Below, piece after piece: positions 7,701-64,000 of a stretch of DNA of 64,000 bases (its first letter is position 1; every line of letters begins with the position of its first letter). Both the position numbers and the translations under genes were made by a program. Origin of the DNA: Macrostomum lignano (taxonomy: Eukaryota); assembly GCA_002269645.1 (NCBI GenBank), contig NIVC01000995.1, positions 324,100-388,099 of the forward strand. The letters are read 5' to 3'. The notes under the pieces are model-generated. The model ran no database searches, was not told where the DNA came from, and worked only from the letters and a program-made list of their open reading frames with translations.

Positions 7701-10700
7701 TTGTGAGAGAGGAATTTTCAGGAAAGAATCGCGAGGGACGAATTGTCAGAGAGGAATTGTCAGAGAGTAATTGTCAGATAGGAATTGTCAGGGAGAATTT
7801 GTCAGAGAGTTTCATGCAATGTTCAACTGTGAAGCAGCTGGAGACTGCAATTGTCTTCATAAAGACACGGTCACACCGACAAACTTTGGTCAGACTTGGA
7901 ATCGGTCAGGTCGAACCCGCCGCACCTGATCATCGGCGGCTACAATGGCACAGTGTCAGCCATTGCCAGCGAGCTGGGCATTCCGTACTATTGCACCAGC
8001 CCGAGCCATCAGAGCCCGCTGCTGATGGACGCAACCTACCTGAATGCCAGCTCGCTGCTGCTCATGAACTCTTACATGGAAGACATGATTGCGGCGGCCC
8101 AGCAGCTCACTAACTCCATCATTCAGCGGCAGGCTTTGATTGTGGTTACCGATGACATCAGTGACAGTGAGTGATAAGTGTTTAACAATCATGAGTGAGA
8201 GTGCTCTGGGTGACAATGTCCTGAGTGACAGTGTCCTGAGTGACAGTGTCTTGAGTGACAGTGTCCTGAGTGACAGTGTCCTGAGTGACAGTGTCCTGAG
8301 TGACAGTGTCCTGAGTGACAGTGTCCTGAGTGACAGTGTCCTGAGTGACAGTGTCCTGAGTGACAGTGTCCTGAGTGACAGTGTCCTGAGTGACAGTGTC
8401 CTGAGTGACAGTGTCCTGAGTGACAGTGTCCTGAGTGACAGTGTCCTGAGTGACAGTGTTCTGAGTGACAGTGTCCTGAGTGACAGTGTCCTGAGTGACA
8501 GTGTCCTGAGTGACAGTGTCCTGAGTGACAGTGTCCTGAGTGACAGTGTCCTGAGTGACAGTGTCCTGAGTGACAGTGTCCTGAGTGACAGTGTCTGAGT
8601 GACAGTGTCCTGAGTGACAGTGTCCTGAGTGACAGTGTCCTGAGTGACAGTGTCCTGAGGGACAGTGTCCTGAGTGACAGTGTCCTGAGTGACAGTGTCC
8701 TGAGTGACAGTGTCCTGAGTGACAGTGTCCTGAGTGACAGTGTCCTGAGGGACAGTGTCCTGAGTGACAGTGTCCTGAGTGACAGTGTTCTGAGTGACAG
8801 TGTCCTGAGTGACAGTGTCCTGAGTGACAGTGTCCTGAGTGACAGTGTCCTGAGTGACAGTGTCCTGAGTGACAGTGTCCTGAGTGACAGTGTTCTGAGT
8901 GACAGTGTCCTGAGTGACAGTGTTCTGAGTGACAGTGTCCTGTGTGAGTGTGGTGATTATGCATAACTATTCAGAGTTTATGATTAATTGTGCCAATTTG
9001 CAATGGTTCCAGGCGTGAATTTCCTGCTGAACTCGCTGTCCGACCAGGCCCTGCACATGGTACTTCTGAACGGTTCTATTCGCGATTCGCTGTACAATGC
9101 CAGTCTTAAATTCAACATTAGCTCGGCAGTGTTCCAGACAATGTTCACGTCCGACCTCATGCTCGAGGCCCTACTGCCTGAAGTGAGCGGCACTCTGGTT
9201 ACAACGCGGGGTGTTGAATAGCAAAGAATAACAATACGTATCGTTAGTGAATCAAATTATTAAATAATAACTAGTCACAATCACACACCACTTCTTCAGG
9301 CTGCCCGGCTGAGTCTAATGAAAAATGTATCGTTCTGGATCATCACAGACTTGGTGAGTGACTATGAGATGTGCTCAGTCTCTAACCCAAGCCCCCGTCT
9401 TAAATAGAAAGTAATTCCTCTGTCTTAAGTCATGACAATGATCTTCATTGTGTTGCTGTGTTCTGTTGTCGCTGAAAAAGCAATCAAATTAAGTCGCCAC
9501 TCCGCTCCCGCAGTTTCCCAACAGCAGTCAGCTGCTGGCGTACCGCAGAACGGGCTGCACAATGTTCTCCTTTGCGCTGCAGTCTGCAGCGTCCAATGTG
9601 ACGAGTCCTGATGCCCTGACGCTGGCGATGGCGCAGGACGCAATTAATCACTACCTGAAGGTGGTCGATGGTGGCCGTTTGTCATTCGATCTGTCGAGAG
9701 CGCTATTGGTAAACAAATAACTGTACAATCTCTGAATTCCTGTTTATTTAATTGGTTCCAACGCTTGTAAACGCATAAAAGCAATAAATATCCAACTCAG
9801 ACAAGCTACAATGGAATACTGGGCCAACTGCACTTTAGTTCCGGCACCAGACGGAATTTGTACAGCCAGCTCAATACAATGATGACGTCATACAGGCTTC
9901 CCTACTTGGAAGAGGTGATGCATGAGGCTTGTGTTGTGATTTGCGATTCTGGCTTCTGATCTTTAGCTCCTCTGCTGGTTTCACAACCAAGCCACCAGAT
10001 CCCCAACCAAGCCACCAGATCCCCAACCAAGCCACCAGATCCCCAACCCAGCCACCAGATCCCCAACCCAGCCACCAGATCCCCAACCAAGCCACCAGAT
10101 CCCCAACCAAGCTACCAGATCCCCAACCCAGCCACCAGATCCCCAACCAAGCCACCAGATCCCCAACCAAGCCACCAGATCCCCAACCCAGCCACCAGAT
10201 CCCCAACCAAGCCACCAGATCCCCAACCCAGCCACCAGATCCCCAACCAAGCCACCAGATCCCCAACCCAGCCACCAGATCCCCAACCAAGCCACTAGAT
10301 CCCCAACCAAGCCACTAGATCCCCAACCCAGCCACCAGATCCCCAACCAAGCCACCAGATCCCCAACTAAGCAACCAGATCCCCAACCAAGCCACCAGAT
10401 CCCCAACCAGCCACCAGATCCCCAACCAAGCCACCAGATCCCCAACCAAGCCACCAGATCCCCAACCAAGCCACCAGATCCCCAACCAAGCCACCAGATC
10501 CCCAACCAAGCCACCAGATCCCCAACCAAGCCACCAGATCCCCAACCAAGCCACCAGATCCCCAACCAAGCCACCAGATCCCCAACCAAGCCACCAGATC
10601 CCCAACTAAGCAACCAGATCCCCAACCAAGCCACCAGATACCCAACCAAGCCACCAGATCCCCAACTAAGCAACCAGATCCCCAACCAAGCCACCAGATC

Positions 10701-44204: not shown

Positions 44205-49418
<5,214 letters not shown>

Positions 49419-49509
49419 GCCTGCTGCAACCGGAAGGATTGGCATAAATCCCACCTAGTAGTGCTCTAGTGCTTAGGTATGAGCACAGATAATATAATGA
49501 GTGAACGCA

Positions 49510-53241: not shown

Positions 53242-53409
53242 ATGGGCCTATTAGGTCTTAGGCTATATAGTGTAAAATCCATTTGAAAATCTATAGTAGC
53301 TATACCTAGGACTCTAGGGCCTTAGAAAGGTAAGGTATCAAAATCCTTGGGATAATGGCTTAACTTTCTTATGCTCATATTATATTGTGGGCCTAACCCT
53401 AGCTAGTAG

Positions 53410-54273
53410 TGATGTGTTCCTTATTACCCGACTTTCGATAATCAAGGAACAATCACTTCTAGCTCAACAGCTAGGCAACCCAGTAAGTCAAACGAAGGTA
53501 TTCAATTACCTTTAATCCGGATTTGAATTTCTTGAGTAGTTCTCGCTAGGAACTTGTCAGTAGATCTCGTAGATCAGGCGCCTTGATTCTTCAGTTGCTC
53601 TGGTCCTGGTTCCTCTTGTACTTCCGATAAGTTCTTCCGGCCGGTATCTTCCGTCAGGACCAATCAGAGGCCTCGTAGCAACAATGGGTACCCTGCGCCA
53701 AACTGCGGTCTAAATTAAGCCTCCTTCTTCTAGCAGTGCCTCTATGCACTCTAGGTATAGCTCCGGAAACCACTGATAGTCCTCTAAGATCTATCAGGGG
53801 CAGTCCTTCTGGAGACTGCAACCAATGGAGTCTAAACAGACTCAAGAGTCTCAACAGACTCAATTAGACTCAAGTCTCAATAGACTTGAGCGAGACGTCT
53901 CTAACACAACGGGCGCAAATAAGGAAGGCTTACCGCAACAACTCGACCGAGTCTCGATTGACTTGGTAGATCAGGAAGTCCTCCTAAGGCTTCCTCTTCG
54001 GAGCGCTCCTCTTCCGTGGGGAGAATGGCTCCGGTACCGCTTCAGATCGCTTGTATTTATAGACAAGTTTTTGATCCAAAATAGTATCATGACAATTCAC
54101 GTGTTGCGCTAAAAGGGGAAAATGGCTCATGGCGTATTATTCTGGTAACATCTTTTTCTGGTAGCGTGATTCATTCAAAGCTTAGGCGCACATGCGTGTA
54201 CTTACTTACTTATAGTAGTATTATACGATTATCTTCTTTTTTCCTTTTTTAACGGGAGGTAGAACACTCTACA
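53410..54273 (-). repeat. 3' LTR (864 bp)
   Basis: Matches 63138-64000 by eye except for a 1-nt indel in a T-run. Starts TGTAGAGTGTTC and ends GAACACATCA on the - strand; TATAAA lies at 54056-61 (-). Confidence 0.9.
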
Positions 54274-54277
54274 AAAT

Positions 54278-54288
54278 CTCCCTTTTTT
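54278..54288 (-). other. Polypurine tract candidate
   Basis: AAAAAAGGGAG, 4 nt upstream of the inferred 3' LTR start TGTAGAG. Confidence 0.6.
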
Positions 54289-54453
54289 ACGAAAAAACTC
54301 GTCCCGAGTTTTAACAATAAAATTCTGTGGTGATCAGTTAATATAGGAAATAAACAATTGATTTTGTGCGCGTCTAGTGAAGCGAGGGTTTGGTCAAAAC
54401 TCTAAAAACTTTTCAGTACATATTGCGGTCAAAACTCGAATATCGCGTAGACA

Positions 54454-54828
54454 TCAAGTGGCATCAGGTTTGATCCGACACCACTTTCGAAACGTGCAGT
54501 CTCGCGGCATACTATTACATAAGGGGCATCCTATAACGCCCCTACTAGCGGTTTGCTTCAAACAGTGCATGCAAATAAAATGTTGGTGGTTACAATATTG
54601 AAACGTGCGCCAAGAATAACAATAGGCACATTGTCGCAAACTATCTCTACAGAGGGGACAATTCTGCCATGGCTGAATATAATGTGAATCGCTTAAACAT
54701 TGTCCGCAAACTTTATGTTCGTTGATGCAAATAGTCGGTGGCTTGACAGCCAAGTCATCAGTTAAACATATCGGGCAGTCATATAGCTGCTGAGGCTGGG
54801 GCGCCTGTTTTGACAGTGCGTTGCCCAT
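54454..54828 (-). CDS. Retroelement accessory protein: N-myristoylation motif plus two RING fingers (124 aa)
   Basis: The first ATG (54828; A at -3, G at +4) gives MGNALSK; the track's start at 54840 is a TTG. Two C-x2-C...C-x3-H-x2-C-x2-C...C-x2-C motifs follow. Lies between pol stop and PPT. Confidence 0.8.
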   Translation of the reverse strand: MGNALSKQAPQPQQLYDCPICLTDDLAVKPPTICINEHKVCGQCLSDSHYIQPWQNCPLCRDSLRQCAYCYSWRTFQYCNHQHFICMHCLKQTASRGVIGCPLCNSMPRDCTFRKWCRIKPDAT

Positions 54829-54948
54829 AATTGTCGTCAATTTGTCGCTGTCTTTGTGTCGCTCGGATTAGTCGCCTTTTACGACAAGCTTGCGAAGCTG
54901 TAGTGCTATTCTTTATCCCGGTCACTACACGGGGTTGTTCTCTAAACT

Positions 54949-57900
54949 CTAGCGTGGTCGTAGGTTGTAGCCATGTGGCTGGCTCACATCTGTCGTTTGA
55001 GTCTCCTCGTGCTTCGTCGCGATGTGGCGGTTCGTTGAACGCGTGCGATCAGCGTTGTCTAATGTCGGTAGAAACGTCGCTGTGTCAGTGTTGATCTTCT
55101 TTAGTCGATGAATGTGTACGTAGAACTGGTGCTGATGTGGATCTTGTACATTAGCCAGGCGTGCCGTTGTTGGTGACGTTAGTTGGACCACTCGATAGGG
55201 TCCTTTGTACTTCTGTGCATGTTTATGCGTCTGCTGTGGCGGGTAGTGTAGGTAGACGATGTCGCCGGCCGTCAGGGTTGTCGATCTCGCGTCGTTGCCG
55301 GTGGTCAGAGCCACCTGGTTGTCAATGTTGTGCTTGGCGATCTTCCATGCGAGGTGTAGTTGCGTGACGAATTTCTGAATGGAAGTCGGTACTTCCACGT
55401 ACTGCGATGGTAGCAATTGCTGTGCGAGCAGATTCGGCGGTTGGAAGTCTCGTCCAAACATTAGGAAGAATGGCGTATTGTCCGTTGATCGATGAATAGC
55501 GCTGTTGTAGGCCATTGTTACAGATTGCAGGTAGATGATCCAGTCTTCCGGCTGTTGGTGCGCGAAATGTGTAATCATCTCGTGCAGGTTGCGGTGAAAC
55601 CGTTCAACCATGTTTGCCTTCGGATTGTAGGTCGATGTGTAGATCTGCGTAATGTTGAGAATCCTTACGACTTGCTGAAACAGTTGCGATGTAAACTGCG
55701 ATCCGTTGTCCGATGTGAGGTTCTTCGGCGTGCCGTACTTGCAAATGATTTCGTTGAAGAAACTCATTGCCACTGTCTGAGCTGTGATGTCCGGTATCGG
55801 TATGGCGATAGCAAACTTCGAGAAGATATCCAAGGCGGTTAGAATGTAGGTGTAGGCGATGCCCTGGAGACAGCTCGGTGGTAGCGGTCCGGTGATGTCG
55901 ATGCTTAGACAGTCCATTGTAGTCGACTTCGGAATGGACTGTAGCTGCGGTTTCTGTCGTCGTCCTGTCTTTGATGCAGCACATGAATGGCAGTTGTTGC
56001 AATACTGCTTGATGTCGCCGTACATAGTTGGCCAAAAGTAGTATTGTTCCACTCTCGCGATGGTCTTTGCTGCCGACAGGTGTCCAGCGAGTGGGTTGTC
56101 GTGTAGCTCGTTGAGAATTGCTTGCCGAAACGAATATGGTATGTAGATCTTGGGTTTATTGTCGCTCATCCAGTAGAGCCGTGACTTATTGATTGTTAGG
56201 TGTTGTCGTTGCTTGCGTAGGAATTTTCGTTCCATGGGACTGAGTTTGATGTTCTTGTCGTCGTCTTTAACCGCTTGGTAGAAGTTGTCGCGCTCGGTTT
56301 CATCCACCAACTCCTTGATGTTAGGGATTGGATGAATGGCGTTGACTTCATAGGCTCTTGACAGGGCGTCCGCGGCTTTGTTGGTAATTCCTGGTTTGTA
56401 GACGAGTTTGTAGTTGTAATCCTGGATCTTGAGTGTCATTCTGATGAGTCGGTTGTTGGTCTGTCCTTTTGTAGTTACGACGTAGGTCAATGGTGCATGA
56501 TCCGTGCGTACTATCGTCTGTATTGGAGAACCATAGATGTAGTAATGAAACTGTCGCAGGGCGAACAAGACTCCTAGTAGCTCTCGTTCCGTAGCTGACC
56601 ACTTTGTCTCATTTGGTTTGAGTGCTCGACTGACGTAAGCAATAGGTCGTTCCTTCTTGTCCTCGGTTTCCTGTAGTAGGACTGCTCCGAGTCCCGTTCC
56701 TGAGGCGTCTGTCTCGATGATGAAGGGCTTGTCGAAGTCCGGATGCTGTAGCAGTGCGTCTGATGTCAGCTGTCGTTTGATTTCGTCGAAACTTTCCTGT
56801 TGTCTCTGTGTCCAGTTGTCTTGCTTCCATTTGTCGAACTTGAGCAGGTCGTACAGTGGCTTTGCTGTCTTTGCGAAGTTAGGTAAGAACTTCCTGAAGT
56901 ATTGCGCAAGTCCAAGGAATGATTGGACCTTCGTTATACTGGTTGGCGTAGGAAACTTCTTCACCTTTTCCACGTTGTCTGGGTCCGGTGAGATTCCTTT
57001 GGCTGTCACCTGATGTCCCAGGTAACGCACGTTGTCTCGGAAGAATTTGCATTTAGTTGGTTGTAGCTTCAGACCTTGGCGTTGAATGAGCGCTAGGGCC
57101 TTCTCCGTAGCTTCGTAGAGTCGCTCGAAATCCTCTCCGTAAGCTAAAATGTCGTCGACATAGTGCAGCAGGTTCGTGCATCCTGCTAGCATGTATGCTG
57201 TTAGTCGACTCATCGTTGCTGGGCTGTTGCTAAGTCCCATCGGCGATCGATTGTACTCGTATACTTGTCCATTGTAGGTTTTGAAAGCCGTGTACTGTCG
57301 TGACTCTTTCTCGATTTCAATTTGCCAAAATCCATGACGTAGGTCGAACACCGTGAACAATTTTGCCGTGTTGAGCTTTGCTAGTAGTTCGGAGATCTTC
57401 GGTAGGCTTTGCTGATCCGTCGGTATGTACTTGTTCAACAGTCTGAAGTCGCATACGAGTCGTCTTTCGTTTGTCTCCTTCTTCTGTACCAGTAGGCACG
57501 GTGAGGAGTAAGCCGAAATAGCTTTGCTGATGATGCCGTGCTTTAGCATTTTATCGATGATTTCGTCAAAGTGTTGTTGCAGATGCTTGGCGATCGGGTA
57601 CGGCTTGCACTGAATTGGTTCCGTGTGCGGCAGAAGTTTGATTTCCTGTTTGATGTCCTTGGCTCGTCCGATGTCGTAATCATGATGGCAGAAGGCTTCG
57701 TTGTACTTCCACAACAGCTGTCGAACTTTCCTCTTTTGCTGTTCCGTAATCGGGCTGTCATCCAAATTGATCTTCTTTTGAAATTCTTCCTCTGTTAGTC
57801 GTGGAGTCGCTTGTTCAATCAGCATAACCGATGCTTGGGTGTTGAGATGACCGATGCACATTCCTTGTCGTAGATGAACCGTTTCTGTGTTCGGGTTGAA

Positions 57901-60648
57901 GATTTGTACTGGCAGTTGCTTATCCTTTGCAACCAGCACTAGTGCCGTAGGCATCATGATTTGATGTTTTGCCGTGACTCTCCTGTGTGGATCAAATATC
58001 ATTGCTTCATCTGCCGCGCTGGTCGTTTTCGCTCTGACCCAGCATGCGCTTTCAGGCTGGATAATGACATCTTGCTGCAGAGTTACTTTCGGTAGTACTC
58101 GAATCTGGTTGATCAGCGGTTGCTCCACCGTGTCGATCCTAAACGTTTGCTTGTTGAAGTCGAAGGTCAATGGTAGTTGAAGCTGCTTGAACGTGTCGAT
58201 TCCAACGATGACGTCTTGGTTTGGTAGTCTGTCGATGATGTACGTCGGGACCGTCAGCTGTTTATTAGCAATTTTCAAGTCGATATCTGCTTTTCCTAGG
58301 ATGTTGAGTGAATGTCCTCCTGCTCCTGCAACTGCGATTGCTGCTGGTCGTACCGCGAGTCGTAGCTTGTTGCATAATTGTTGCGAGATGACTGTGATCG
58401 AGCTGCCTGAATCCAGTAGTGCTCGACATGGCAAGTTGTTGACAATGACCTGAGCCATTGCTTTGCCAATCTCGGCGTGTAGCGTACAGACGTAGTTTTC
58501 CGGCCATTTTGGCTCGTGCTGTTCTGCTTGATAGTTGGGTGGTTGTATCCTTGGTGCCGTTGGTGTTGTCGGAATCGATGGATATAGCCGCGTTGCTAGT
58601 GTCGGTTGCCCTTGAACCTCACAATGTGCAGTTTCTGTTAGTTCTAAACTGTTGTCGCTTTCCGTTGTCGTTCTTTGCATTATGGCATTCACTGTCTTCT
58701 TAGCTCTTGGACAAGTTTGACTGAAGCACCGTACGATCGATGAAATGATGAAGATTGCCGTGACAATCCACACAATGCAAGCACCGTAGAAGATGAATCC
58801 TTGATAGAGACTGCCTCTTCCATTGAGCAGCTCCCAGAAGCTATTTGTCCAAAATGATTTGATGGCGCTGTCCATTGAAACAAGGACGGGAAATCTTCCT
58901 GTCCCGGTTCCTTTGTCCTTTCTTGTGAACAGCTGGTGAATCATCTTGCGTTGGGTGATGAACGCTTGCAAGAAGTCGTTGATCGTCCATCCTGGTGTTA
59001 TCTCGTCAAGTTGGATATCGGCGAATGGCGTATACTTCGTTCTGTTGAATCGGATTTTCAAATCCTCCATGTCGTAGTTTTCGTCGACGATTACTTCCGG
59101 TTCTGTGACGTTTGCTGTCGTTCCAGTTGTTTTGATGACGTGTAGTGCATTGTCCAGTTGATAGTAGTTTACTGCCGTGGTGCAAGGTCTCGGTATTGCG
59201 GTGCCAACGATGATGTTGTGTACCGTGTCCAAGAATCCCTGAATTCGTTTTCCTTCGTAGAACGCTTCAATCCTTGGCTTATCGTAGCAGGTTGTTGACG
59301 TGTTTGACGGCAAGATGTTAAAGTGCTGTATCGGCGTGCACTTGTATATCAACAGATGCTCGTATATTGGAACTGCCAAAACGTTCGTCATTCCGGTGAT
59401 TTTACGAAAAGTCATCGTAGGGTTGACATAGTAGTTTTGTCTGGCATAATTTAAGTTGATTGCGTGCATTTTGCAAGTTAGCTGGACCAGTGTTCGATGC
59501 AAGTGGTTTAACTGGTTGTGTAGATTGTGATCCAAAGCCGTTATCTTTGCTGACAACAGCCGGTTTGACACCAGTTTGGGACGTTCGATGTCACGTCGTC
59601 TTCTATTCTGTTTTTCTTGTTGCTGATACGTTCCATTGATGATTGCCAAGAAGGTTTGTTTGTCTTCATCCTTTACGTAGACTGGTATCTCTTGTTCCGA
59701 GATGAATAGTGTCTTGTCTGTATCCTTGCATTTCAGTTTTTGCTCGACTGGTTTCTTTTGAAACGTCAGTGCCAAGTCTCCTGACTTTGCCAAAAACGTA
59801 TTTGACAGTAGTCCTCCTTCAACTGTGTGATACTTTTGAAGCTTGCAGTCAATTTCCGGCTCAACTTCCCACGCGAAGAAGTATTGTCGTGATTTGTACG
59901 GTTCCTCATAGTGTGATTGTGCTCTGTGCTCAATCTGCCATCGATAGTCTTGATGATATGTTGGACTCAGTGGTAGACTGTGTAGTTCTTCCTTCCGTAG
60001 AATCGGCGTTGGACACCATCCTTCACTGTATCGACATTCGCTTAGTTGCAGCTGTAACGATTCCATTTTCTCGTACGGATTGTAGTAGAATGGAATATTT
60101 CTGATCAAGTAGCTGTTGCGTGCCATATATTCTTTCCATTTTCCGAAGAAGTGAATATATCGACCGTTGGCTGAATTCTTTGTTCTGAACAGCTGTGCGT
60201 TGCCGACCTTCTCATCTGGTTCCAGTTCACCATCCTTTGAAAATAGTGTTTGATTCCATTGTAGGCATTCCGCGTGCGACACATGTAGCTCATGTTGTTT
60301 AAATCGGATCCGGTTCCATTGTCCGCGCCAAACTTTTTCCACCAGGTGCTTGTCTCTGAAGCATACTATCCCGTGTTGTCGATGCTTCTTGATGTTAGCC
60401 TTGTAGAGATCGAGTGTAATCTTCTTTGGTTTTGTCTGGTTTGTCTTGAAGTAACTGCATTTGATGTCGGTTGGTATCTTGTAGATCATCGGTTGGATAT
60501 GCGCATCCGTTGGACAAATCATTGGCTTTTCCGTTGCCGTTGCTTTGGCGACTACTGCTATCAGTAGTATCACGATGATCCAGAATAGCCAGTTTTTCCA
60601 CTTCTTGGATTTTGCCGTTGTCCTTGCTGCATTGGCTGCGATCGCCAT
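54949..60648 (-). CDS. Env-Pol polyprotein (signal peptide, class III-like glycoprotein, TM, protease, RT, RNase H, integrase), 1899 aa
   Basis: Uninterrupted ORF. Signal peptide WLFWIIVILLIAVVAKA; furin RRRR|D aa349-352; TM aa617-639; LLDSGS aa744-749; YVDD aa1163; DAS...ERE...DH RNase H; H-H-C-C zinc finger, IDITGP, SDNGSQF, VERFH and GPY integrase motifs; C-terminal YNLRPR. Confidence 0.95.
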   Translation of the reverse strand: MAIAANAARTTAKSKKWKNWLFWIIVILLIAVVAKATATEKPMICPTDAHIQPMIYKIPTDIKCSYFKTNQTKPKKITLDLYKANIKKHRQHGIVCFRDKHLVEKVWRGQWNRIRFKQHELHVSHAECLQWNQTLFSKDGELEPDEKVGNAQLFRTKNSANGRYIHFFGKWKEYMARNSYLIRNIPFYYNPYEKMESLQLQLSECRYSEGWCPTPILRKEELHSLPLSPTYHQDYRWQIEHRAQSHYEEPYKSRQYFFAWEVEPEIDCKLQKYHTVEGGLLSNTFLAKSGDLALTFQKKPVEQKLKCKDTDKTLFISEQEIPVYVKDEDKQTFLAIINGTYQQQEKQNRRRRDIERPKLVSNRLLSAKITALDHNLHNQLNHLHRTLVQLTCKMHAINLNYARQNYYVNPTMTFRKITGMTNVLAVPIYEHLLIYKCTPIQHFNILPSNTSTTCYDKPRIEAFYEGKRIQGFLDTVHNIIVGTAIPRPCTTAVNYYQLDNALHVIKTTGTTANVTEPEVIVDENYDMEDLKIRFNRTKYTPFADIQLDEITPGWTINDFLQAFITQRKMIHQLFTRKDKGTGTGRFPVLVSMDSAIKSFWTNSFWELLNGRGSLYQGFIFYGACIVWIVTAIFIISSIVRCFSQTCPRAKKTVNAIMQRTTTESDNSLELTETAHCEVQGQPTLATRLYPSIPTTPTAPRIQPPNYQAEQHEPKWPENYVCTLHAEIGKAMAQVIVNNLPCRALLDSGSSITVISQQLCNKLRLAVRPAAIAVAGAGGHSLNILGKADIDLKIANKQLTVPTYIIDRLPNQDVIVGIDTFKQLQLPLTFDFNKQTFRIDTVEQPLINQIRVLPKVTLQQDVIIQPESACWVRAKTTSAADEAMIFDPHRRVTAKHQIMMPTALVLVAKDKQLPVQIFNPNTETVHLRQGMCIGHLNTQASVMLIEQATPRLTEEEFQKKINLDDSPITEQQKRKVRQLLWKYNEAFCHHDYDIGRAKDIKQEIKLLPHTEPIQCKPYPIAKHLQQHFDEIIDKMLKHGIISKAISAYSSPCLLVQKKETNERRLVCDFRLLNKYIPTDQQSLPKISELLAKLNTAKLFTVFDLRHGFWQIEIEKESRQYTAFKTYNGQVYEYNRSPMGLSNSPATMSRLTAYMLAGCTNLLHYVDDILAYGEDFERLYEATEKALALIQRQGLKLQPTKCKFFRDNVRYLGHQVTAKGISPDPDNVEKVKKFPTPTSITKVQSFLGLAQYFRKFLPNFAKTAKPLYDLLKFDKWKQDNWTQRQQESFDEIKRQLTSDALLQHPDFDKPFIIETDASGTGLGAVLLQETEDKKERPIAYVSRALKPNETKWSATERELLGVLFALRQFHYYIYGSPIQTIVRTDHAPLTYVVTTKGQTNNRLIRMTLKIQDYNYKLVYKPGITNKAADALSRAYEVNAIHPIPNIKELVDETERDNFYQAVKDDDKNIKLSPMERKFLRKQRQHLTINKSRLYWMSDNKPKIYIPYSFRQAILNELHDNPLAGHLSAAKTIARVEQYYFWPTMYGDIKQYCNNCHSCAASKTGRRQKPQLQSIPKSTTMDCLSIDITGPLPPSCLQGIAYTYILTALDIFSKFAIAIPIPDITAQTVAMSFFNEIICKYGTPKNLTSDNGSQFTSQLFQQVVRILNITQIYTSTYNPKANMVERFHRNLHEMITHFAHQQPEDWIIYLQSVTMAYNSAIHRSTDNTPFFLMFGRDFQPPNLLAQQLLPSQYVEVPTSIQKFVTQLHLAWKIAKHNIDNQVALTTGNDARSTTLTAGDIVYLHYPPQQTHKHAQKYKGPYRVVQLTSPTTARLANVQDPHQHQFYVHIHRLKKINTDTATFLPTLDNADRTRSTNRHIATKHEETQTTDVSQPHGYNLRPR

Positions 60649-61368
60649 TCGTTATCTTCCATGTCCGCATCATATTCTTTCGGTTGTTCCATTGGCTGAT
60701 CCAGGCGGAAGGCTTCTGATTCGCTTTGCTTTTTGGTTATTTCATTATCTTCGTCTGCGGCTTCTTCCGATGTTTCCGTGTTTCACTCCATTGCGTTGTA
60801 TCTTTTCTCTGTCTTGTAGTCGACCGTTTGAATATAGGCTTCACCATTTCGTTTGTATCGGATCTCGTAGCATCGTCGCTGTCGGAACTCGCTTTCTTTT
60901 CACCTGTTCTTTTCCATTTCTTCATCTTTCCATTGTATTTCGTAGCCTTGATCGCTGTCGGAACTTAGATTCTCCGCTCCGGTTCTTCCTGCATTCCTCT
61001 TTCGGCTTGGTAGTCGTTCGTGTCATCACGCACCTCGCAGTCGTGGTCGTTGCCGTAACTTCTACATTCTTCTTCTTCTTTCATTTCTTTGTCTTTCATG
61101 CTCGTTTTGTCGTCATCCACTGTTGTCGATTCATAGTTGTTTTCTTCGCCGGTTTTCATCTTTTCTTCGTTGCCGATGTCGCTCTCCGCCTCCTCCCTTG
61201 TCTTGTGATTTACTTTCTTCCTGTTTTCTCTGCTGTCTCCGGTGGTCTCTTTTAATTTGATCATTTCGTTTCATCGTCTCTTCTGTTTGTCAGTGTTGTC
61301 CTCGTGCGTCGTCTTCTTTTCGATCAGCTGATGTCAAGTTCCGGACTGTGAAGTCCATTTCCAAGTCG

Positions 61369-62427
61369 TCAATTGTGAACACTTGCTTTCTTGCTTTCAT
61401 TTCCGGTGTGAACGTGATGGCATTCGCGTATCGTGGCATTGCTTGCGTCGGCTGTCTTGTGTGTATCTGACGTTGCGTGGCCTGTAGCCATTACTTCTGA
61501 AGCGGCCTTCGTTTCCGAAGCGGCCATCATTTCCGGAGCGGTCATTATTTCCGAAGCGTCTATCATTTCCGAAGCGTCTTTAGCCTGTTGTTGGCGATTT
61601 TGATATTGCTGCCATGGTTTCTGCGGCTTCTGATTGTTGAATATCTGTCGCGGCTTGTCGTATCTTGTTGACCAATGAGGACAATTAATCTGATAATGTC
61701 CTTCTTGTCCGCAGTAGTAACATCTGGCTGAGGCTTGTTCATTTCGTCTTTTTTGTTCGGCGATAGCAGCTGTCTGGTGCTGCATTAACTTGTTTAGTTG
61801 CTGCGTCAGTTTCTGCACTTCATTGTTGCCTGTCGTCATTAATGGGGCACTGGCTTCCCATTGCATTCCGCAACGCAAAAGGTCTTCTTCGGTTTCGATA
61901 TTTTCACGCAAAAGTCTATCCCGAAGTGACGGCTGTGCGTTGTTTATTACGTGCAGGATGAGGTTTTGTTCACGATCCATCAATCGTTGTCTTTCTCTGG
62001 CGGCCAATTCTGCCGCTCCCAGTGGTGGTTGGTCCGCAGCTTGCAGCGGTGGCTGATGCAGTGCCTTAATTATCTGGCGGATATCGTCCACAAAGGCGAG
62101 GAAGGATTCTGTTGCTTGCATCCTTCTGTTATGCAACTTGTGCAGCAGCACTGATCTGTTTGTGCCGCAACGGTTGAAATGCGCGCGCAGTTGAATGATT
62201 AGTGCTGGATAATTTTGCTGTGTTGCCGCATCCAGCTTGCCGTAAATTTCTCGCGCAGTACCTTGGAGAAGAGGTGGCAGCAGCTGTGCCTTCTCTGGAT
62301 TTTGTAGGTTGTATTCCCTACATACCAGGTCAAAATGGTCGACAAATGTGTTAAAATCTTTCTCCATCGAGAAAGTACCGACCGTTTCTTTGATGTCTCT
62401 GTGTACCGTTGGATTGCGCCGCGCCAT
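61369..62427 (-). CDS. gag: Gag (capsid-like domain plus CCHC zinc knuckle)
   Basis: F..F...F..VC....LLPPLLQGTAREIY...L...F capsid-like N-terminus; CYYCGQEGHYQINC knuckle at 61681-61722. The C-terminus may be frameshifted. Confidence 0.9.
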   Translation of the reverse strand: MARRNPTVHRDIKETVGTFSMEKDFNTFVDHFDLVCREYNLQNPEKAQLLPPLLQGTAREIYGKLDAATQQNYPALIIQLRAHFNRCGTNRSVLLHKLHNRRMQATESFLAFVDDIRQIIKALHQPPLQAADQPPLGAAELAARERQRLMDREQNLILHVINNAQPSLRDRLLRENIETEEDLLRCGMQWEASAPLMTTGNNEVQKLTQQLNKLMQHQTAAIAEQKRRNEQASARCYYCGQEGHYQINCPHWSTRYDKPRQIFNNQKPQKPWQQYQNRQQQAKDASEMIDASEIMTAPEMMAASETKAASEVMATGHATSDTHKTADASNATIRECHHVHTGNESKKASVHN

Positions 62428-63117
62428 GTTGTTGATAGGTAGAACGGTAGTTCAAGATCTGGATCGATTTGTAACGGATCGTCCAGTGTGGTGTTTGCCT
62501 CGGAATAAACCTCGACTGTAACGAATTGCCTTGTGGTGTCGATTTGTTATTCGCTGGCCTCGGATGCGGTGTGGCTTGCTGCCACTGGTTGTCCTCAAAT
62601 GAACTTGTTCTGTTCGCTTGCTGATTTCGCACTTATGCGGCGTCCCGCAAAGTGTATCTTCAAGTTGAAGTGGACTTGTCTTCTTGCTTTGCAAAGTCTT
62701 TTTCTCTTCTTTGACTCTCTCTCTTTTGTCAATTAACTCTGCTCTCCACGAAGTTTCAATTAATTTCGGTTTTGTTTTAGTTTTTGTGCCGGCAAAATGT
62801 TTCAGTTATTTTTTGTTTGTTTTGCGTCGACGATTTTTTATTTTGGTTTGTTTTCAGTGTACCGACGAAGTTAATTTCGGTTTTGTTTTAAACTCACACT
62901 TGCTCGAGCTCGTCAAAACAAAATTTAACACGCGTGCTCAAACTGTACTCAAATTTGACAGGTGCTCAAACCTGTACACCAAATTTTACTCGAGTTTCAA
63001 AACGTAACGGACTTAAAAAGTGTTAACTCTAACACGTGCGCGCAAAATTAATGAAGTCGCTCTGTCGTCACTTTACAATAGCTTGGCCAGGCTATTGCTC
63101 AAGGTTTGAGTAGTGCC

Positions 63118-63135
63118 GAGAGGGCGAGATCACCA
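63118..63135 (-). promoter_or_regulatory. Primer-binding-site candidate
   Basis: TGGTGATCTCGCCCTCTC begins 2 nt after the 5' LTR ...CA; cognate tRNA not identified. Confidence 0.5.
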
Positions 63136-63137
63136 AT

Positions 63138-64000
63138 TGATGTGTTCCTTATTACCCGACTTTCGATAATCAAGGAACAATCACTTCTAGCTCAACAGCT
63201 AGGCAACCCAGTAAGTCAAACGAAGGTATTCAATTACCTTTAATCCGGATTTGAATTTCTTGAGTAGTTCTCGCTAGGAACTTGTCAGTAGATCTCGTAG
63301 ATCAGGCGCCTTGATTCTTCAGTTGCTCTGGTCCTGGTTCCTCTTGTACTTCCGATAAGTTCTTCCGGCCGGTATCTTCCGTCAGGACCAATCAGAGGCC
63401 TCGTAGCAACAATGGGTACCCTGCGCCAAACTGCGGTCTAAATTAAGCCTCCTTCTTCTAGCAGTGCCTCTATGCACTCTAGGTATAGCTCCGGAAACCA
63501 CTGATAGTCCTCTAAGATCTATCAGGGGCAGTCCTTCTGGAGACTGCAACCAATGGAGTCTAAACAGACTCAAGAGTCTCAACAGACTCAATTAGACTCA
63601 AGTCTCAATAGACTTGAGCGAGACGTCTCTAACACAACGGGCGCAAATAAGGAAGGCTTACCGCAACAACTCGACCGAGTCTCGATTGACTTGGTAGATC
63701 AGGAAGTCCTCCTAAGGCTTCCTCTTCGGAGCGCTCCTCTTCCGTGGGGAGAATGGCTCCGGTACCGCTTCAGATCGCTTGTATTTATAGACAAGTTTTT
63801 GATCCAAAATAGTATCATGACAATTCACGTGTTGCGCTAAAAGGGGAAAATGGCTCATGGCGTATTATTCTGGTAACATCTTTTTCTGGTAGCGTGATTC
63901 ATTCAAAGCTTAGGCGCACATGCGTGTACTTACTTACTTATAGTAGTATTATACGATTATCTTCTTTTTCCTTTTTTAACGGGAGGTAGAACACTCTACA
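63138..64000 (-). repeat. 5' LTR (863 bp visible; ends at the window edge)
   Basis: Copy of 53410-54273; flanks diverge immediately outside TGATGTG. Confidence 0.9.

Follow-up and report, generated by a model that had tools for sequence, protein, structure and literature searches.

A class III, herpesvirus gB-like envelope fold predicted for a gag-env-pol Ty3/gypsy element of the flatworm Macrostomum lignano

Does the envelope protein (Env) of a long terminal repeat (LTR) retroelement in the flatworm Macrostomum lignano belong with the retroviral class I Envs, or does it carry a class III fold like that of herpesvirus glycoprotein gB? We addressed this question in a 64,000-nt stretch of contig NIVC01000995.1 (assembly GCA_002269645.1, positions 324,100–388,099; hereafter the window, to which all coordinates refer), where an LTR element fills positions 53410–64000 on the minus strand and Env lies inside a single open reading frame (ORF) of it. 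The original prediction, drawn from motifs at 58732–60540, had proposed a class III fusogen. This range corresponds to amino acids (aa) 37–639 of the minus-strand ORF starting at 60648, and Env forms the N-terminal third of this 1899-aa Env-Pol ORF, ahead of Pol and in the same frame. From structure prediction and homology, the ectodomain almost certainly has a class III, gB-like fold.

All motifs named in the original prediction were found on the minus strand of the one ORF in the order proposed: GIVC at aa 93, KVWRGQW at 105 (nt 60336), AEC at 126, YIHFFGKW at 164 (60159), RRRRD at 349 (59604), LHNQLNHLHRTLVQLTC at 376, ITG at 417, HLLIYKC at 431, CYDKP at 454, GFLD at 471 and PRPC at 486. 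The ORF opens with a hydrophobic segment at aa 21–39 (60532–60588, minus strand; hydropathy 2.41), a signal peptide or signal anchor that is presumably cleaved, followed by the ectodomain (58801–60531, minus strand) with 12 conserved cysteines and six N-glycan sequons, where several had been claimed. The anticipated Trp/Phe-rich membrane-proximal segment lies near aa 600 and runs into a hydrophobic helix at aa 617–646; the membrane-proximal aromatic helix and transmembrane anchor together occupy 58729–58875 on the minus strand (aa ~592–640; helix H556–572 in the structural model). The segments at aa 21–39 and 617–646 were the only hydrophobic ones, as in a type I membrane protein with a membrane-proximal region, and the anchor is followed by ~90 residues and then by protease, reverse transcriptase (RT), RNase H and integrase. 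Taken by themselves, the motifs were within chance in shuffled sequences: of 5000 shuffles, 4054 contained an 8-residue window with at least four aromatics, resembling the loop-2 cluster, 21% had an R-x-[RK]-R site, and the sequon mean was 3.5 compared with the six observed. An argument for a class III Env from motifs alone was rejected on these grounds, and the case therefore stands on positional conservation and fold.

Positional conservation was assessed among the relatives, 59 proteins recovered at E ≤0.001 when 1.84 billion representatives were searched exhaustively, most of them with 22–30% identity to the query; word-based homologue searches were nearly blind to this family, returning 1 and 2 matches vs 59. 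In the alignment of the query with 44 of these relatives (15 long ones were excluded), each of the 12 ectodomain cysteines was conserved in 95–100% of the relatives covering its column. Of 27 relatives, 21 had at least two aromatics at the tip of loop 1; the same held for loop 2 in 26 of 31. The linker that carries the furin motif in the query has one in 25 of 34 relatives as well. A Cys-Cys pair in loop 2, present in 22 of 29 aligned relatives, is absent from the query (60159–60136). The Pfam scan, which covered the 27 longer relatives, assigned nearly all other recognisable domains to retroelements (20–30% identity). Counted by motif across all 59, 17 proteins combine env with a gag zinc knuckle upstream of it (one being a near-identical sister gene model), 19 have a protease motif downstream of env and 10 have both; a gag-env-pol polyprotein is thus common in the family. 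An M. lignano polyprotein in UniRef was 98% identical to the query. The Env tree, built by a quick method from 44 rows (the query and 43 relatives, 16 having been excluded for short coverage or as near-copies), grouped the query loosely with relatives P0005 and P0006 (SH-aLRT 91); it comprises the query and relatives without viral references and is hence silent on the donor.

Several individual relatives were also of interest. This type of Env occurs together with Pao domains in P0054, and of P0007 and P0061 one has a NADAR domain ahead of Env and the other a weak Pfam match to herpes gB. The family's database protein, P0062 (UniRef A0A0M4HFM6), begins within the Env ectodomain and is named solely as a retrovirus-related polyprotein.

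The fold evidence came from profile search, structure prediction and structure comparison. A profile of the query and its 44 aligned relatives, searched against the Protein Data Bank (PDB) sequences, retrieved 48 matches at E ≤1, every one of them herpesvirus gB, including 22 at E ≤0.001 (best E 7.8e-18). Landmarks of Epstein–Barr virus (EBV) gB, namely fusion loop 1 and five disulfides, were taken from the available text of PMC12859058, and the profile alignment brought loop 1, the furin site and six cysteines into register. The AlphaFold model (mean pLDDT 79.1; 416 of 580 residues at least 70) has loop 1 capping a long hairpin, the furin site within a disordered linker, and a central helix that spans 47 residues. 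All 32 matches listed by Foldseek against the PDB were gB (best E 1.3e-22), the conformation matched being that of post-fusion gB. VIA-align against 48,161 chains gave Z of at least 8 for five chains only, all gB (Z 9.3–11.2; the best with 413 aligned residues and rmsd 8.0); next in rank were Bourbon virus GP (6.7) and Chandipura G (6.3), with PH domains after them, so that thogotovirus GP and rhabdovirus G (Z 5.7–6.7) scored clearly under gB among solved structures. Isolated domain IV reached Z 10.7 with rmsd 3.6 over 163 residues, and PH domains had Z ~5–6.5. In a second structure comparison all 50 matches listed were gB (best Z 12.4, 414 residues, rmsd 7.6). Neither a class I nor a class II fusogen stood among the matches listed in these solved-structure searches.

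Among predicted viral structures (BFVD), the top two matches were glycoproteins of Beihai rhabdo-like virus 3 (E 1.1e-25) and Midway nyavirus (E 4.6e-25), both of which we take to be nyamiviruses. Next came gB (E 2.3e-23) and entomopoxvirus, chu- and xinmo-like proteins, all of these BFVD matches at 9–14% identity. The Atlas lead for Env agreed with the Pfam family Monjiviricetes_fusion and was weak (0.90). As a separate observation, the uncharacterised entomopoxvirus proteins W6JPK9, Q9YVZ3 and A0A916KPE9 matched the Env model in BFVD at E 1e-17 to 1e-21.

The model and the profile together assign the predicted features to gB landmarks. Fusion loop 1 (60316–60336, minus strand; aa 105–111) sits at the tip of the long beta-hairpin (model strands E53–72 and E75–85) and aligns with EBV gB fusion loop 1. 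The second of the two aromatic loops originally proposed, at 60136–60159 (minus strand; aa 164–171), precedes model strand E136–153 in a plausible position and is a probable fusion loop, lacking the Cys-Cys pair of most relatives. The furin-type site (59590–59604, minus strand; aa 349–353) falls in the disordered domain II–III linker (pLDDT <50 at model residues 308–324) and aligns with the furin site of gammaherpesvirus gB. As had been proposed for RRRR/D, it is followed by a long helix, the central helix of domain III (59425–59565, minus strand; aa 362–408, H326–372 in the model), with 71% hydrophobic residues at the a/d positions of its best heptad register. The predicted fold thus shows the PH-like domains I–II, long central helix and beta-rich domain IV of class III proteins; the internal fusion loop 1 is placed at the tip of a beta-hairpin by the model and on the EBV loop-1 position by the profile. 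Class I hallmarks were absent from the Env ORF: the residues following the furin site are charged, aa 40–616 are free of any hydrophobic window, and no CX6CC or CX6-7C loop was found, the post-furin ectodomain cysteines lying at aa 392, 437, 454 and 489. The proposed likeness to gB, rhabdovirus G and chuvirus proteins held for a gB/nyamivirus/chuvirus branch, whereas rhabdovirus G scored clearly lower among solved structures. To our knowledge, rhabdovirus G is not cleaved by furin.

The element that encodes this Env is very likely a young Ty3/gypsy element of the gag-env-pol type, published as Mlig_errantivirus_2, with the gB-like Env as its envelope gene. All of its parts lie on the minus strand. 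The 5′ LTR (63138–64000, 863 nt), which reaches the window edge, and the 3′ LTR (53410–54273, 864 nt) both have TG...CA termini and differ solely by one 1-nt indel. A primer-binding site (PBS) lies 2 nt inside of the 5′ LTR (63124–63135), and a polypurine tract (54277–54288) adjoins the 3′ LTR. The gag ORF (61369–62427, 352 aa) encodes a CCHC zinc knuckle (Pfam zf-CCHC, 22.4 bits, above the cut-off). The single Env-PR-RT-RNaseH-IN ORF (54949–60648) continues past the Env anchor, after ~90 aa and in the same frame, into an aspartic protease (PR; 58174–58452; Pfam Asp_protease_2, E 1.2e-9), reverse transcriptase and RNase H (RH; 56416–57486; best PDB match Ty3 Gag-Pol, E 4.5e-96) and an integrase (IN; 55159–56142) with zinc-binding, core and GPY/F parts. 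The PR-RT-RH-IN order and Ty3-like Pol, together with the TG...CA LTRs, PBS and polypurine tract, are those of Ty3/gypsy elements (Metaviridae). A gB-type env between gag and pol, in an element listed in the available part of PMC13524379, further identifies a GAG-ENV-POL errantivirus of the HSV/gB type (HSV, herpes simplex virus). Because the frame is open, all cysteines are kept and the LTRs are one indel apart, the element appears to have been active recently. A Troyka LTR element, which has CG...CG termini and no env, was considered and rejected given the TG...CA termini. No heat-shock element was found in the LTRs with the pattern used, and Rfam gave no match across 53400–64000. Short repeats were seen within the element: five copies of an 18-nt repeat at 61487–61576, close to the gag end, a two-copy 18-nt repeat within each LTR and a 30-nt repeat within the leader.

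The gag and Env-Pol ORFs are separated by a 720-nt spacer (60649–61368) with stops in all three minus-strand frames (13, 8 and 4, read from 61368 to 60649), 44% A and 22 ATGs. Its 25 stops compare with 34 plus or minus 4 in shuffles, fewer than expected by chance, and the spacer matches the sister gene model P0004 in pieces. From these two observations, the spacer is probably a coding linker that has become interrupted. A spliced or subgenomic RNA may skip it, or else this copy may be damaged at that point.

Downstream of the Env-Pol ORF, an accessory ORF of 124 aa (54454–54828, minus strand) contains two tandem RING-like arrays at aa 18–60 and 67–104, and it looks real because this double pattern was absent from all 5000 shuffles (0/5000). 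It starts with Met-Gly-x-x-x-Ser, which we take to fit N-myristoylation. No homologue was found among proteins of 68–217 aa, PDB matches appeared at E ≥0.03 only, the Pfam zf-P11 family gave no match, and the structural model was unusable (pLDDT 35.6). Atlas gave RING proteins of large DNA viruses at 0.90–0.91 and arenavirus Z at 0.87, all at lead level. Since Gag has no myristoylation-type start, a matrix or budding role could be imagined for the RING protein; a ubiquitin ligase acting against host defence is as plausible. Our literature search, with most subscription journals outside its coverage, returned one unrelated review and no RING-bearing extra ORFs in LTR elements.

How might such an Env-Pol protein work? 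The first hydrophobic segment would direct the chain into the endoplasmic reticulum, where the ectodomain, by comparison with gB, would become glycosylated, disulfide-bonded and trimeric. Furin would then cleave the domain II–III linker, with the two halves held together by disulfides as in gB. Because the second hydrophobic segment would serve as the membrane anchor with the ectodomain lumenal, Pol and the tail are predicted from this topology to lie in the cytosol, as would Gag in the gag-fused relatives, and there the element's protease would free PR, RT and IN. Fusion would proceed through two internal loops at the domain I tip, not through a cleavage-freed peptide. The element has no gH/gL-like gene, and therefore Env probably fuses alone; low endosomal pH would be the most likely trigger, although this is a guess. 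Env might thus carry particles from cell to cell and into germline or stem cells. On balance, we lean towards Env working as a fusogen in the element, a view that rests on analogy with gB.

Several results weigh against this combined picture of a class III fold in a working envelope gene. The single Env sequence retrieved irrelevant PDB matches alone (E ≥0.67), and its match to Pfam PF24664, Monjiviricetes_fusion, reached 24.1–24.5 bits (E ~1e-5), under the 27-bit gathering cut-off. The profile result includes three of 45 members that themselves weakly match Pfam gB. The model has a pTM of 0.56, the whole-chain Foldseek superposition is loose (TM 0.39–0.47, rmsd 12–18 A), and Z values of 9–12 lie just moderately above the comparison tool's background of 7–8. 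At the level of expression, no frame of the gag-env linker is open in this copy. The herpesvirus gB family model (PF00606) gave no query match at E ≤1. In favour of the class III fold, Monjiviricetes_fusion was matched by 21 of the 45 alignment members, several relatives passing the cut-off. Could the class III look then be due to chance, in a class I protein of the retroviral or baculovirus-F type, a class II fusogen or a non-viral protein? Like class I proteins, this Env has a heptad helix behind its furin site; among 45 relatives there is one with a weak match to Baculo_F (E 2.8e-4), and flavivirus E, haemagglutinin and arenavirus GP stand in Atlas at 0.83–0.85, lead level. Against these stand the charged post-furin residues, the absence of any hydrophobic segment from aa 40 to 616, and top sequence and fold matches that were all gB among solved structures; a chance resemblance is thus extremely improbable. 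The gB profile, the confident model, four structure comparisons and the missing class I hallmarks bear out the central proposal of a class III fusogen rather than a retroviral class I Env. Within class III, Env might have been captured recently from a negative-strand RNA virus akin to nyamiviruses or chuviruses, instead of belonging to an ancient lineage resident in retrotransposons, which would fit the two best BFVD matches (the glycoproteins of Beihai rhabdo-like virus 3 and of Midway nyavirus) and the Pfam and Atlas leads to Monjiviricetes_fusion. We consider such a capture unlikely: identity to those two glycoproteins is just 13–14%, gB is nearly as good in BFVD, the other domains of the 27 scanned relatives are nearly all retroelement ones, and the available text of PMC13524379 argues for an ancient acquisition.

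Even with a class III fold, Env might be no working fusogen, serving only as a membrane tether that takes Pol to sites of assembly or being encoded by a copy blocked at its interrupted linker. The stops in all frames of the 720-nt spacer with its 22 ATGs, the frequent joining of gag and env in one protein (17 of 59 relatives with the knuckle upstream of env) and the query's lack of the loop-2 Cys-Cys pair seen in 22 of 29 relatives all point this way, and entry by gB-type errantiviruses is called unknown in the available text of PMC13524379. This explanation nevertheless seems doubtful to us, since the Env-Pol frame is unbroken over 5.7 kb with its 12 cysteines, aromatic loop tips and furin site kept, the LTRs are near-identical, 16 copies are listed in the available part of PMC13524379, and translation could avoid the spacer by way of a spliced or subgenomic RNA. 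At the other extreme, the preferred reading of Env as a fusogen could be extended to an infectious enveloped flatworm virus, with a stand-alone gB-fold fusogen acting without gH/gL, Pol packaged as the cytosolic tail of Env rather than as Gag-Pol, and the myristoylated tandem-RING protein serving in a matrix or budding function like arenavirus Z; we hold this to be very unlikely.

Elsewhere in the window, an exon of the host DNA primase large subunit was recognised at ~47900–49500 on the minus strand (Pfam E 6.4e-26), with a probable further exon at 48948–49454. Positions 1–50400 are very densely filled with minisatellites, their repeat units being 8 to 80 nt long.

The novelty implied by the original prediction did not survive comparison with the literature. 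In its available text, PMC13524379 (Chary and Hayashi, eLife 2026) describes Envs of the HSV/gB type in Ty3/gypsy elements from across the invertebrates, with gag-env-pol as the gene order in those of Nematoda, Bryozoa and Platyhelminthes, and assigns the gB-type Env five domains, fusion loops and cysteine bridges. Its supplementary file 1 tabulates Platyhelminthes_Rhabditophora_Mlig_errantivirus_2 from Macrostomum lignano as ENV_HSV with 16 copies, giving LTRs at 0–863 and 9727–10591 and the PBS at 865–877. The offsets from the window end, the PBS 12-mer and the sequence-end position match this row exactly, and the window element is very probably the same locus, no difference having been seen. 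Thus gB-type Env in Ty3/gypsy elements, the flatworm gag-env-pol order and this element itself are already published, and our analysis is largely confirmation. Mlig_errantivirus_2 is absent from the structure table in the available part of PMC13524379, and the Env model presented here is therefore a small addition. Term searches of the main text found neither the in-frame Env-Pol fusion behind an interrupted linker nor the 124-aa tandem-RING ORF, and no mention of nyami. For the gag-env-pol order, our literature search, with most subscription journals outside its coverage, returned PMC13524379 alone, and a term search of the available parts of PMC12801592 and PMC12440569 did not find this Env. 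The residual value is practical: this is a young, multi-copy element with an intact Env in a transgenic laboratory flatworm. Because the available text of PMC13524379 calls the entry of gB-type errantiviruses unknown, the element offers a handy system for asking whether fusion by a gB fold can dispense with gH/gL, and also how a Pol that is synthesised as the Env tail comes to be packaged.

Compared with known systems, the element's Env has its domains in the order seen in herpesvirus gB and shares with gB the central helix, loop 1, six cysteines and the place of the furin site. It differs from gB in its 10–16% identity and shorter ectodomain, and in having 12 cysteines vs the five disulfides of EBV gB described in the available text of PMC12859058. 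The element furthermore has no gH/gL partners and carries Pol fused behind the Env tail. The glycoproteins of nyamiviruses, chuviruses, xinmoviruses and related viruses (PF24664) provide the best predicted-structure matches and the only relevant Pfam family, whereas the query scores below the Pfam cut-off, identity is 10–14%, and Env here is encoded by a retroelement. Non-canonical nematode endogenous retroviruses reportedly have a continuous gag-env-pro-pol ORF and a Nyamiviridae-like Env, while gag is a separate ORF here. They resemble the present element in their class III glycoprotein and in placing env before pol (Sacco 2022, as cited elsewhere). Anakin, a chuvirus glycoprotein in mosquito elements, offers another case of an LTR element carrying a class III glycoprotein, although in BEL/Pao rather than Ty3/gypsy according to the available text of Dezordi 2020 (PMC7642597). 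The gypsy and ZAM errantiviruses of Drosophila are likewise Ty3/gypsy elements having an Env with a furin site; unlike the Env described here, theirs is of the baculovirus-F type, a class I protein with a cleavage-freed fusion peptide encoded by its own ORF after pol (PMC13524379, available text).

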